This document shows, piece after piece, positions 5-3,000 of a stretch of DNA of 47,572 nt. Below the pieces are notes generated by a model. It had not been told where the DNA came from and did no database searches. It saw only the letters and a list, made by a program, of their open reading frames with translations. Location: positions 1 to 47,572 of the forward strand of contig CAZHEJ010000001.1 in NCBI GenBank assembly GCA_964531615.1, in the 5' to 3' direction. Each line of letters opens with the position of its first letter. The first letter of the stretch is position 1. Source of the DNA: an uncultured Gammaproteobacteria bacterium (lineage in GTDB: Bacteria > Patescibacteriota > Patescibacteriia > Magasanikbacterales > UBA922). The position numbers were made by a program, and so were the translations under genes.

Positions 5-3000
5 ATGAAAAAATATAACCCAGAAACAATTGAGCCGAAATGGCAGAAGTACTGGGAGAAGAATAAGATTTTTGAAGCGAGAGACCCTTCGACTCGCCCT
101 GACGGGCTCGCTCAGGGTTCCTCCTCGCTTGATGCTCGGAGGAAATTTTATGCTCTGATTGAGTTTCCATACCCATCAGGCGCCGGATTGCATGTCGGCC
201 ACCCACGGCCTTTTACCGCCATGGATGTTATAGCGCGCAAGCGCCGGATGCAGGGATTTAATGTGCTTTATCCTATTGGATTTGACGCTTTTGGCTTGCC
301 GACAGAAAATTACGCGATTCAGACAGGCCGTCCGCCGGCAGAAGTTACTGCAGAAAACATCAAAAATTTCACTCGGCAATTGAAAATGCTCGGTTTTAGT
401 TTTGACTGGTCGCGGGCAGTCATTACCAGCGAGCCGGAGTATTACAAATGGACGCAGTGGATATTTTTACAGCTTTTCAAGCATGGGCTGGCTTACAAGG
501 CGAAAGTGCCGATTAATTGGTGTTTATCCTGTAAAATCGGATTGGCAAATGAAGAGGCAGTTGGCGGAGTGTGCGACCGTTGTGGCGGGCCGGTTGAAAA
601 GCGTGAAAAAGAGCAGTGGATGCTAGCCATTACCAAATATGCGGATAAATTATTAGAAGGCCTGAAAGAAGTTGATTATATCCCCCAAGCCAAAATCCAG
701 CAGGAGAATTGGATAGGGAGGTCAGAAGGAGTTGAAGTGGACTTCAGACTACAGACTTCAGACTACAGATTGCGAGTGTTTACGACCAGGCCTGACACTC
801 TCTTCGGCGCGACTTATATGGTGTTGGCGCCAGAACATTCTTTAATTTCAAATTTCAAATTTCAAATTTCAAATTTTTCTGAAGTGGAAAAATATATTGA
901 GCAGTCGAAGAAGAAGTCGGAGATTGAACGAACGGATTTAGCCAAGGAAAAAACAGGCGTGGAATTAAAAGGTTTAAAAGCGATTAACCCAGTAAATAAT
1001 GAAGAAATCCCCATTTTTGTCGCTGATTATGTCTTAATGGGTTATGGCACAGGCGCGATTATGGCTGTACCAGCTCATGATGAAAGGGATTGGGAGTTTG
1101 CGAAGAAATACTCCCTGCCTGTTCGGCAGGTCGTGACTACAGACTACAGACTTCAGACTACAGGCGAGTGTTTTTGTGGTGAGGGTAAAAATATTAACTC
1201 TGATTTTTTAGATGGATTAGAAACTAAAGATGCAAAAGAAAAAATGATTGAGTGGCTGGAGGAGAAAAATTTAGGTAAAAGGCAGGTGCAATACAAGCTC
1301 CGCGACTGGGTTTTTTCCCGCCAGCGCTACTGGGGCGAGCCCATTCCGCTGGTGCATTGCGAAAATTGCAAGAATAAAAAGTATCATTATGTTTTTTTGC
1401 ATGGATATACAGGTGGAGCAAATAAGAATTGGAAACCGTGGTTAAAACAGATTTTGGAAGAGCAAGGAAATACTGTATTTTGTCCGGATTTGCCAAATAC
1501 TGATGAACCAAATATTGATGAACAGGTGCAATATATTTTGGATAATACCAAAATTGATGAAAATACAATTCTAGTCGGGCATAGTCTGGGTGGGGCAGTG
1601 GTGATGAAATTATTGGAAAAATTAAATAAAAAAGTGGCGAAGGTTTTATTTGTTGATTCTGTATTAAGACCAGAATGGCCGGATAAGCCACGGCCGATGG
1701 TGGTAAAAAGCTGTGATTGGAAATTTGATTTTGAAAAAATAAAATCAAAAAGCGATGAATTTATTGTATTGGGTGATGCTGAATTTAAAACTATTTTTGA
1801 AAAAGATTTAAGAGATTTAGCCAATTATCTTGGTGCCAGATTAGTTTTATCACAACCAGAGAATAGGCATTTTACAGCTGATGAGGAGCCAATAATTCTG
1901 CGGTTATTGAATCAGGAAGGCTGGATCCCGCTTCCCGAATCAGAATTGCCGCTTGAACTGCCAAAAGTGAAAAAATACCAGCCAACAGATACAGGCGAGT
2001 CGCCGTTGGCAACAATGGAAAAGTGGGTGAATGTAAAATGCCCGCGCTGTGGCAGTCCAGCAAAACGGGAAACAGATACAATGCCGAATTGGGCAGGGTC
2101 AAGCTGGTACTTTCTTGCGTATACAATGCCAACATCCCCCCAACCCCCCTTTAAAAAAGGGGGTAAACAGAGTGAATTTATTTGGGACAGAGAAAAGATG
2201 GACTATTGGATGCCGGTTGACTGGTATAATGGCGGAATGGAGCACACAGTTTTGCATTTATTGTATTCCAGATTCTGGAATCAGTTTTTGTATGATATTG
2301 GGGTTGTGCCGACAAGAGAACCGTATAAAAAGCGCACTTCTCACGGCATGATTTTGGGCGAGGATGGTGAAAAAATGAGCAAGTCGCGCGGAAATGTGGT
2401 CAATCCTGATGAAATGGTGGAAAAATTCGGCGCTGATGCTTTCCGTTTGTATATAATGTTCATGGGCCCGTTTGACCAGGCAGTGGCGTGGGATACGAAT
2501 GGTTTAGTGGGGGTGAGCAGGTTTTTGGAGAAAGTGTGGAATTTGCAACAATTTGTCATCCCTGCGAAGGCAGGGATCCAGAAATCGTCGGCGATGGATT
2601 CCCGCTTTCGCGGGAATGACAATAAAAAACTTGATACTTTATTACACCAAACAATCAAAAAAGTTACAGAAGATATTGAGTCAATGCGATTTAATACGGC
2701 AATTTCACAGTTGATGATTTTGGTAAATGAAATGGGTAAAGACACGAATCACATATCACATATCACATATCACATATTTCTCAAATTATTATCACCCTTT
2801 GCCCCGCATATAGCTGAAGAATTGTATGAATTGACTGGCGGCAAATCAAATATTTCTTATCAGCCGTGGCCTGAATATGACCCAGAACTAATTAAAGAAG
2901 ACACAATCACTATCGCCGTGCAGGTGAACGGCAAACTGCGCGATACTTTGGAAGTCCCGGCAGATATTTCTGAAGAAGAAGCAAAATCGCGCGCTTTATC

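Follow-up and report, generated by a model that had tools for sequence, protein, structure and literature searches.

The window analysed here, a 47.5-kb stretch of DNA (47,572 nucleotides of contig CAZHEJ010000001.1) whose source is a Patescibacteria (candidate phyla radiation, CPR) bacterium near Magasanikbacteria, opens with leuS, the gene of a bacterial-type leucyl-tRNA synthetase (LeuRS), and within this LeuRS a complete alpha/beta serine hydrolase of the YdeN/RBBP9 family is genuinely nested. The 1027-residue protein is encoded by one open reading frame (ORF, 5-3088), and the TIGR00396 equivalog profile matches the whole of it at 992.5 bits (cut-off 548.4), in two stretches parted by the insert; together with the phmmer alignment given below, this bears out the first-pass annotation of the window, in which a single ORF with a LeuRS split by an additional domain had been claimed. 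Every LeuRS signature is kept, namely HIGH, KMSKS, CP1 and both zinc motifs, and the host is, as read from these signatures, a fully functional bacterial type. The CP1 editing domain, rightly called intact at first pass, matches positions 1-185 of the 185 of profile PF13603 at 223 bits, and its TTRPDT and AHDERD motifs are both present in the sequence. In the AlphaFold 2 (AF2) model of the full-length protein (predicted local distance difference test, pLDDT, 87.2; predicted template modelling score, pTM, 0.81), the structure without the insert superposes on those of bacterial LeuRS. The features of the synthetase are listed here, with invariance scored in an alignment of 100 related LeuRS; HIGH, KMSKS, the ZN1-type cysteines and the CP1 features are invariant, or almost so, in relatives of either insert state.

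5-3088, + strand: leuS, bacterial-type leucyl-tRNA synthetase, a single unbroken ORF of 1027 residues
191-202, + strand: HIGH-type signature HVGH, residues 63-66; H63, G65 and H66 invariant
521-583, + strand: first zinc module, ZN1 type (CxxC...CxxC), residues 173-193; C173 and C190 invariant, C193 nearly so
704-1261, + strand: CP1 editing domain (PF13603), residues 234-419, intact, with TTRPDT and GTGAIMAVPAHDERD
1358-1369, + strand: first CxxC of the second zinc knuckle, C452 and C455, aligned with C439 and C442 of Thermus thermophilus LeuRS
1370-1918, + strand: YdeN/RBBP9-family serine hydrolase domain, residues 456-638, identified by Pfam, phmmer and AF2 superposition
2039-2050, + strand: second CxxC of the same knuckle, C679 and C682, aligned with T. 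thermophilus C484 and C487
2372-2386, + strand: KMSKS loop, residues 790-794; K790, M791, S792 and K793 invariant

In the phmmer comparison with T. thermophilus LeuRS, query residues 1-455 correspond to T. thermophilus 1-442 (ending in VHCEAC), and query residues 639-788 to T. thermophilus 443-582 (starting with GVVPVPEEELPV). The intervening residues 456-638 (183 residues, nucleotides 1370-1918) constitute a clean insertion, since the residues at either side of it match neighbours in ordinary LeuRS, C442 and G443 being adjacent in T. thermophilus; both junctions are in frame, and the LeuRS alignment resumes beyond them without loss. The coordinates first given for the insert, 1371-1917, started one base off the codon boundary, the real start being 1370, and its placement within a zinc knuckle, between the two CxxC pairs, is confirmed by this alignment. 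The four cysteines of the knuckle (C452, C455, C679 and C682) are invariant in the 100 related LeuRS, whether insert-bearing or not, and their T. thermophilus counterparts C439, C442, C484 and C487 are presumably zinc ligands. The knuckle that hosts the hydrolase is, by the same alignment, assigned to the second zinc module (Zn2) and not to the mobile ZN1. Zn2 is named as a separate LeuRS module and is presented with the core domains (PMC9424281), whereas the mobile ZN1 (Escherichia coli residues 149-193) is packed against the synthetic site and is in contact with the tRNA at its 3' end (PMC13454842). With the insert located in Zn2, the position beside the synthetic site that had been proposed at first pass is therefore not established.

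Like the bacterial LeuRS of known structure (T. thermophilus 1h3n/2bte, E. coli 4aq7, Neisseria gonorrhoeae 7nu4), the query has all domains in the usual order, that is, HIGH, ZN1, CP1 after ZN1, second zinc knuckle, KMSKS, anticodon-binding and C-terminal domains; unlike them, it has 183 additional residues separating the two CxxC pairs in its second zinc module, the leucine-specific domain is missing, query residues 788-790 spanning T. thermophilus 582-637, and it carries several short lineage-specific inserts of low model confidence. An intein reading of the large insert was rejected, as the segment starts with KNKKY (Lys), ends with LLNQE (Glu) and is followed by Gly; no intein or endonuclease Pfam match was found in the insert, and no target-site duplications, flanking direct repeats or terminal inverted repeats at its borders.

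The identity of the insert as a YdeN/RBBP9-type serine hydrolase, also claimed at first pass, is supported by both sequence and predicted fold. PF06821 (Ser_hydrolase) scores 33.9 bits in the context of the whole protein and 38.5 bits on the insert alone (cut-off 22), the insert is also above the Pfam gathering cut-off for Abhydrolase_1, and among solved structures its sequence is closest to Bacillus subtilis YdeN (E 8e-12), with RBBP9 next. Modelled on its own by AF2, the insert attains a pLDDT of 95.1, with YdeN (template modelling score, TM, 0.86) and RBBP9 (TM 0.84) as the top structural matches, and in the full-length model the blocks of the insert reach pLDDT 93-98. YdeN (PDB 1uxo) and human RBBP9 (2qs9, 7oex) are lidless alpha/beta serine hydrolases of about 190 residues belonging to PF06821; the insert is of the same size and shares with them the fold, the His-Gly motif, the G-H-S-x-G elbow and the C-terminal His, but they are free-standing, whereas here the domain is nested within another enzyme. 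Against Pfam and NCBIfam, the insert gave no match to the tRNA deacylases YbaK, AlaX, DTD or Pth, and no second copy of the hydrolase was found in the 47.5-kb window.

The architecture recurs widely. In a full-length search, 76 of the 120 closest LeuRS relatives in public data, drawn from NCBI, JGI, ENA and Logan assemblies and all mapped onto the query core, were found to carry the hydrolase; the carriers are mostly Patescibacteria (Magasanikbacteria, Falkowbacteria, Uhrbacteria and others), together with some contigs labelled as DPANN. The hydrolase occupies the identical zinc-knuckle junction (site 3) in 80 other distinct LeuRS, and a second site (site 1), at the start of CP1 (core residues ~252-255), in 19 LeuRS; some of the insert-bearing LeuRS lie on contigs of 100-886 kb. 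A third hot spot, inside CP1 (core residues ~379-388), holds NUDIX, HAD, methyltransferase or a second hydrolase. Several of these enzymes may coexist, as in the 1358-residue LeuRS P0073, with NUDIX and HAD domains inside CP1 plus a serine hydrolase at the zinc knuckle, while P0055 has an S-adenosylmethionine (SAM) methyltransferase inside CP1, P0144 has HAD only, and in P0150 the CP1 start is occupied by an in-frame IS200-type Y1 transposase domain. A methyltransferase gene of the window (4612-5214) was considered as the source of the one nested in P0055 and discarded, only the SAM-binding motif matching. A scan of species-representative genomes gave four site-3 LeuRS, and CP1-start hydrolases in bacterial-type LeuRS on L012 and L013 (Iainarchaeota-labelled, DPANN) and on one Gammaproteobacteria-labelled contig.

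Hosts other than LeuRS were also identified, the hydrolase being nested in ValRS (two cases), TsaD, the Der/EngA GTPase and a formyltransferase, and fused to a peptidase S51 and to an inositol monophosphatase (P0209, P0290, P0207, P0211, P0227, P0239 and P0288). Among the free-standing homologues, P0002 (41% identity) lies 12 nucleotides upstream of an archaeal-type leuS on an archaeal contig (L001/L014, 6001-9473), with two NUDIX genes and metG nearby; this linkage between hydrolase and leuS is a single case, the gene neighbourhoods of P0001, P0006 and P0011 being without leuS.

An insert-only, word-indexed search had returned only free-standing hydrolases of about 185 residues, as if the LeuRS-hydrolase architecture were unique; this was an artefact of sensitivity, overturned by the full-length and exhaustive searches. 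The exact LeuRS protein of the window is absent from the public collection searched, but such sequences have been deposited for years, and database annotations of the type 'leucyl-tRNA synthetase/predicted alpha/beta hydrolase family esterase' already exist. No paper on LeuRS with such inserts was found in the literature searched; the nested architecture is real and recurrent, and undescribed in that literature. The first-pass annotation, which knew of no described LeuRS of this kind, holds for the literature searched, but not for public sequence data from Patescibacteria and DPANN-labelled contigs, in which the architecture is common.

The leuS gene of the window contains additional short segments. 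Residues 28-46 (window 86-142) and 712-726 (2138-2182) are short lineage-specific extras, disordered in the model (pLDDT <50), and the latter sits at a fourth LeuRS hot spot, where inserts of ~180 residues occur in P0041, P0063 and P0115; those of P0041 and P0115 were scanned against Pfam and gave no match. Two 29-nucleotide heptamer tandem repeats, (GACTWCA)x4, 97% identical and in frame, lie at 740-768 and 1135-1163, that is, at the hot spots of the CP1 start and the CP1 interior, the window having no further copy; they are translated as DFRLQTSDYRL and TTDYRLQTTG, with low model confidence at residues 382-384. Another in-frame heptamer repeat within CP1, (AATTTCA)x4 at 844-871, is translated as ISNFKFQISNF. 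In the anticodon-binding domain, an imperfect palindrome (2553-2622) with 28-nucleotide arms, 82% complementary, is read in frame as PAKAGIQKSSAMDSRFRGND, with pLDDT <50 at residues 860-869; its right arm recurs at 11449-11474 and 13595-13620, one copy being inside a radical-SAM ORF (13308-15071), and the palindrome resembles a small repeat of dispersed type, tolerated within coding regions.

By fold and score the query is a member of the hydrolase family, but with a non-canonical acid. The residues involved are the following.

1400-1405, + strand: oxyanion-hole motif His466-Gly467, with His in 81 of 81 site-3 and 17 of 19 site-1 copies
1577-1591, + strand: nucleophile elbow GHSLG, with Ser527 at 1583-1585, aligned with the GHS motif of YdeN/RBBP9 and with RBBP9 Ser75
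1655-1657, + strand: Asp551, candidate relocated catalytic acid, next to the end of a modelled strand, with Asp in 100% of the clade to which the query belongs
1775-1777, + strand: Asp591, three residues before the canonical acid column, conserved in the query's clade
1784-1786, + strand: Phe594, placed by alignment in the canonical catalytic Asp column (RBBP9 Asp138)
1868-1870, + strand: His622, catalytic histidine, aligned with the GHF motif of RBBP9/YdeN

The Ser, the His and the oxyanion motif of the embedded hydrolase are strictly conserved. Ser527 and His622 are kept in 100 of 100 embedded copies (81 at site 3 and 19 at site 1), which are only 28-71% identical to the query insert, and the two site-1 copies without the oxyanion His are alignment gaps, this His being present in all 98 copies aligned there; a check of orthologues for loss of the triad, proposed at first pass, has thus found Ser, His and oxyanion motif invariant in the 100 embedded homologues. 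Of the triad as originally described, Ser527 and His622 stand, as does the oxyanion motif, and the codon positions were exact (Ser527, 1583-1585; Asp591, 1775-1777; His622, 1868-1870), but Asp591 is not the canonical acid. The canonical Asp, the D of the S-x-x-D-P motif, equivalent to RBBP9 Asp138, gives way to Phe594 in the query and, across most of its clade, to Phe, Tyr, His, Arg or Ala, whereas at column 551 Asp is invariant in the query's clade and other clades have Ala. In an alignment of 202 hydrolase domains in which the covariation of the acids was scored, the 38 domains in which column 594 is not Asp all combine Asp551 with an acidic residue, Asp or Glu, at 591 (this number omits three sequences with no acid in any of the three columns, mostly gaps in the region), in contrast with none of the 153 with canonical Asp594 having Asp551; in four of the 38, Asp551 and Asp591 are accompanied by Glu at column 594. 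This distribution suggests that the loss of the canonical Asp may be offset by Asp551, Asp591 or both, and since these acids appear where the canonical one is lost, a compensatory relocation is the probable explanation, which argues for retained catalysis. Among alpha/beta hydrolases, the pancreatic lipases offer a precedent for an acid that has shifted to the loop behind the preceding strand. Glu108, which anchors the alpha-amine in RBBP9, has no evident counterpart in the query, in a loop that aligns poorly.

Base composition and phylogeny were also compared between the insert and its host. The GC content at third codon positions (GC3) is 0.262 in the insert versus 0.47 in the flanks; along the gene it drops from ~0.5 to 0.22-0.34 over precisely the inserted segment and then rises again, and among 183-codon windows of the genes in the whole stretch the insert ranks within the lowest 1%. 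The site-3 domains belong to two distant hydrolase clades, the relocated-acid clade of the query and a canonical S-D-N-D-P-Y clade, and in a third clade LeuRS site-1, ValRS, TsaD, Der and free-standing copies are mixed; in the tree of the LeuRS core, both site-3 types and insert-free LeuRS are interleaved. The identities of insert and core are uncoupled, as illustrated by P0041 (71% insert, 65% core) and P0030 (51% and 78%). The contrast in GC3 and the incongruence of the trees point to a putative cassette-like exchange. The embedded hydrolase domains are no more basic than the free-standing ones.

The reading preferred here, with moderate confidence, is that of a serine hydrolase that is active through a relocated acid, largely autonomous, lodged in a permissive loop of LeuRS and swapped as a cassette among ultra-small genomes. 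Catalysis would be carried out by Ser527 and His622, with the acid moved from the canonical position (Phe594) to Asp551, and with Asp591 possibly assisting Asp551 or replacing it; the domain would thus work as a largely autonomous second enzyme. The surface loops of LeuRS would act as permissive docking sites for serine hydrolase, NUDIX, HAD and methyltransferase cassettes, which may be gained, lost and swapped among small CPR genomes and DPANN-labelled contigs. The argument for autonomy derives from the nesting in varied hosts, the incongruent trees, the low GC3 and the lack of added basic charge. The likeliest chemistry, by analogy with RBBP9, would be the hydrolysis of alpha-aminoacyl esters or amides with a free amino group, RBBP9 being an aminopeptidase whose substrates need a free alpha-amine and which forms aminoacyl-enzyme adducts (PMC8866121), and reported, in a reference cited in PMC7730578, to activate the L-valyl ester valacyclovir. 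Since this chemistry resembles aminoacyl-ester hydrolysis, it is counted towards a role linked to LeuRS.

Some observations weigh against an autonomous and freely exchanged domain. The hydrolase and LeuRS core trees are crude neighbour-joining trees, and the N-terminal linker KNKK is common to both site-3 clades, a feature also compatible with one ancient insertion and later divergence. The repeated recruitment by LeuRS, at two sites and with two clades at one of them, favours a LeuRS-linked function over a pure scaffold, and the same applies to the location of P0002 just upstream of an archaeal-type leuS. As for a role in editing, the CP1 editing residues and the zinc cysteines show the same conservation in LeuRS with or without the insert, and CP1 is intact, so that the hydrolase does not make up for a decayed editing site. 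The evidence as a whole leans towards an esterase scaffolded on LeuRS over a second tRNA-Leu proofreading site, and the hydrolase is probably not a dedicated site of the latter kind.

The strongest of the alternatives, a hydrolase coupled to LeuRS and acting on one of its substrates or products, is regarded as doubtful. It may be conceived either as a third hydrolytic site, deacylating (mis)aminoacyl-tRNA or hydrolysing aminoacyl-adenylate, or as an aminopeptidase freeing hydrophobic amino acids at the synthetase of an amino-acid auxotroph. The recruitment by LeuRS at two sites and from two hydrolase clades is in agreement with such a coupling, as are the adjacency of P0002 and its neighbouring NUDIX genes to an archaeal-type leuS, and the fact that ValRS, the formyltransferase and TsaD, which also host the domain, handle aminoacyl-tRNA or acyl-adenylates as well; the aminoacyl-enzyme intermediates of RBBP9, with its requirement for a free alpha-amine, and the fusion of one homologue to a peptidase S51 fit the same chemistry. 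These points are countered by a CP1 with intact editing residues, whose conservation is the same in insert-bearing and insert-free LeuRS, by the position in Zn2, with the core domains, and not in the tRNA-contacting ZN1, and by the absence of any gain of positive charge in the embedded domains. Moreover, the domain is also nested in the Der GTPase and fused to inositol monophosphatase, three other free-standing homologues are not beside leuS, and no obvious equivalent of the RBBP9 Glu108 anchor is seen in the poorly aligned loop of the query. A broader version of the coupling, slightly more doubtful still, would regard the LeuRS of CPR and DPANN as a modular platform that has recruited small hydrolases (YdeN/RBBP9-type serine hydrolase, NUDIX and HAD) again and again, in which the relocated-acid serine hydrolase would be an unrecognised synthetase-associated aminoacyl-ester/aminopeptidase module coupled to leucine charging; it would either check aminoacyl-tRNA or aminoacyl-adenylate at a third hydrolytic step, or supply auxotrophic episymbionts with amino acids on the enzyme itself.

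It is improbable that the insert is a neutral or selfish passenger, brought by mobile or recombining DNA into a tolerant loop from which clean removal is unlikely, and with a chemistry irrelevant to the cell. The sharp break in GC3 at both junctions, the patchy distribution of insert states on the LeuRS tree, the short in-frame repeat elements elsewhere in the same leuS and the in-frame IS200-type transposase domain at another LeuRS hot spot, in a relative whose insert is among the most similar, would all be expected of such an origin, but a passenger would hardly keep Ser, His and oxyanion His invariant across 100 copies diverged to 28-40% identity, nor show a relocation of the acid that looks compensatory, nor a fold predicted at pLDDT 93-98 in its context, and neither flanking direct repeats, terminal inverted repeats nor intein motifs are present. 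Less probable again is a catalytically dead structural or regulatory module, such as a protein-interaction or ligand-sensing domain, as the loss of the canonical triad, with Phe594 in the query and Phe, Tyr, His, Arg or Ala at this column for most of its clade, might indicate; the nucleophile elbow, His622 and the His-Gly motif are strictly kept, however, Asp551 and Asp591 occur exactly where the canonical Asp is gone, and pseudo-enzymes among the alpha/beta hydrolases usually lose Ser or His first. An assembly chimera or frameshift joining a hydrolase gene into leuS, compatible with the deviating base composition of the insert and with the absence of the exact protein from the public collection, is extremely unlikely, given the in-frame junctions, the continuous LeuRS alignment across the flanks and the independent recovery of the same junction in 80 other LeuRS from four data sources, contigs of 100-886 kb included, by which a mis-join is excluded for practical purposes.

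Aminoacyl-tRNA synthetases are textbook cases of accessory-domain gain, and their known hydrolytic additions are dedicated editing folds. The inserted hydrolytic modules described so far (CP1, INS and the editing domains of ThrRS and AlaRS) have unrelated folds and are universal in their synthetases, whereas the insert of the query is a generic alpha/beta serine hydrolase, lineage-restricted, interchangeable and found also in hosts that are not synthetases. With the free-standing YbaK/ProX, AlaX, DTD and Pth, a possible analogy is only functional, through the hydrolysis of aminoacyl esters, the fold and the catalytic machinery of the insert being different. Synthetases with an extra catalytic domain are exemplified by CP1 editing itself and by an IleRS with an N-acetyltransferase domain (NCBIfam NF040702), and the query likewise carries a second enzyme; the synthetases have been noted as favoured hosts of domain insertions (PMC13114784).

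The novelty of the present case lies in a generic and apparently active serine hydrolase within the structural zinc knuckle of an essential enzyme, acquired by LeuRS more than once and accompanied in relatives by NUDIX, HAD or methyltransferase domains, with up to three extra enzymes per LeuRS. The interest resides less in the single gene than in this multi-hydrolase LeuRS platform. If the domain is autonomous, it would illustrate how the ultra-small genomes of these symbionts store enzymes within housekeeping proteins and trade them as cassettes, and the insertion sites of LeuRS, natural and well tolerated, would be usable in protein engineering; if it is coupled to LeuRS, a new mechanism of translation quality control or substrate supply would be involved. 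In addition, the covariation between the loss of Asp594 and the gain of Asp551 would show in compact form how the catalytic acid of an alpha/beta hydrolase can migrate in nature.

Elsewhere in the window, ComEC directly follows leuS, and the neighbouring genes include serine hydroxymethyltransferase (SHMT), a Mur ligase, the CCA-adding enzyme, MacB/FtsX, DnaK and RecJ. The sole Rfam match in the window is a tRNA gene at 25702-25775 (+ strand). The ORF at 19654-20397 (- strand) has the lowest GC3 of the window (0.242; median 0.44), a value close to that of the LeuRS insert, and may be another recently acquired segment.

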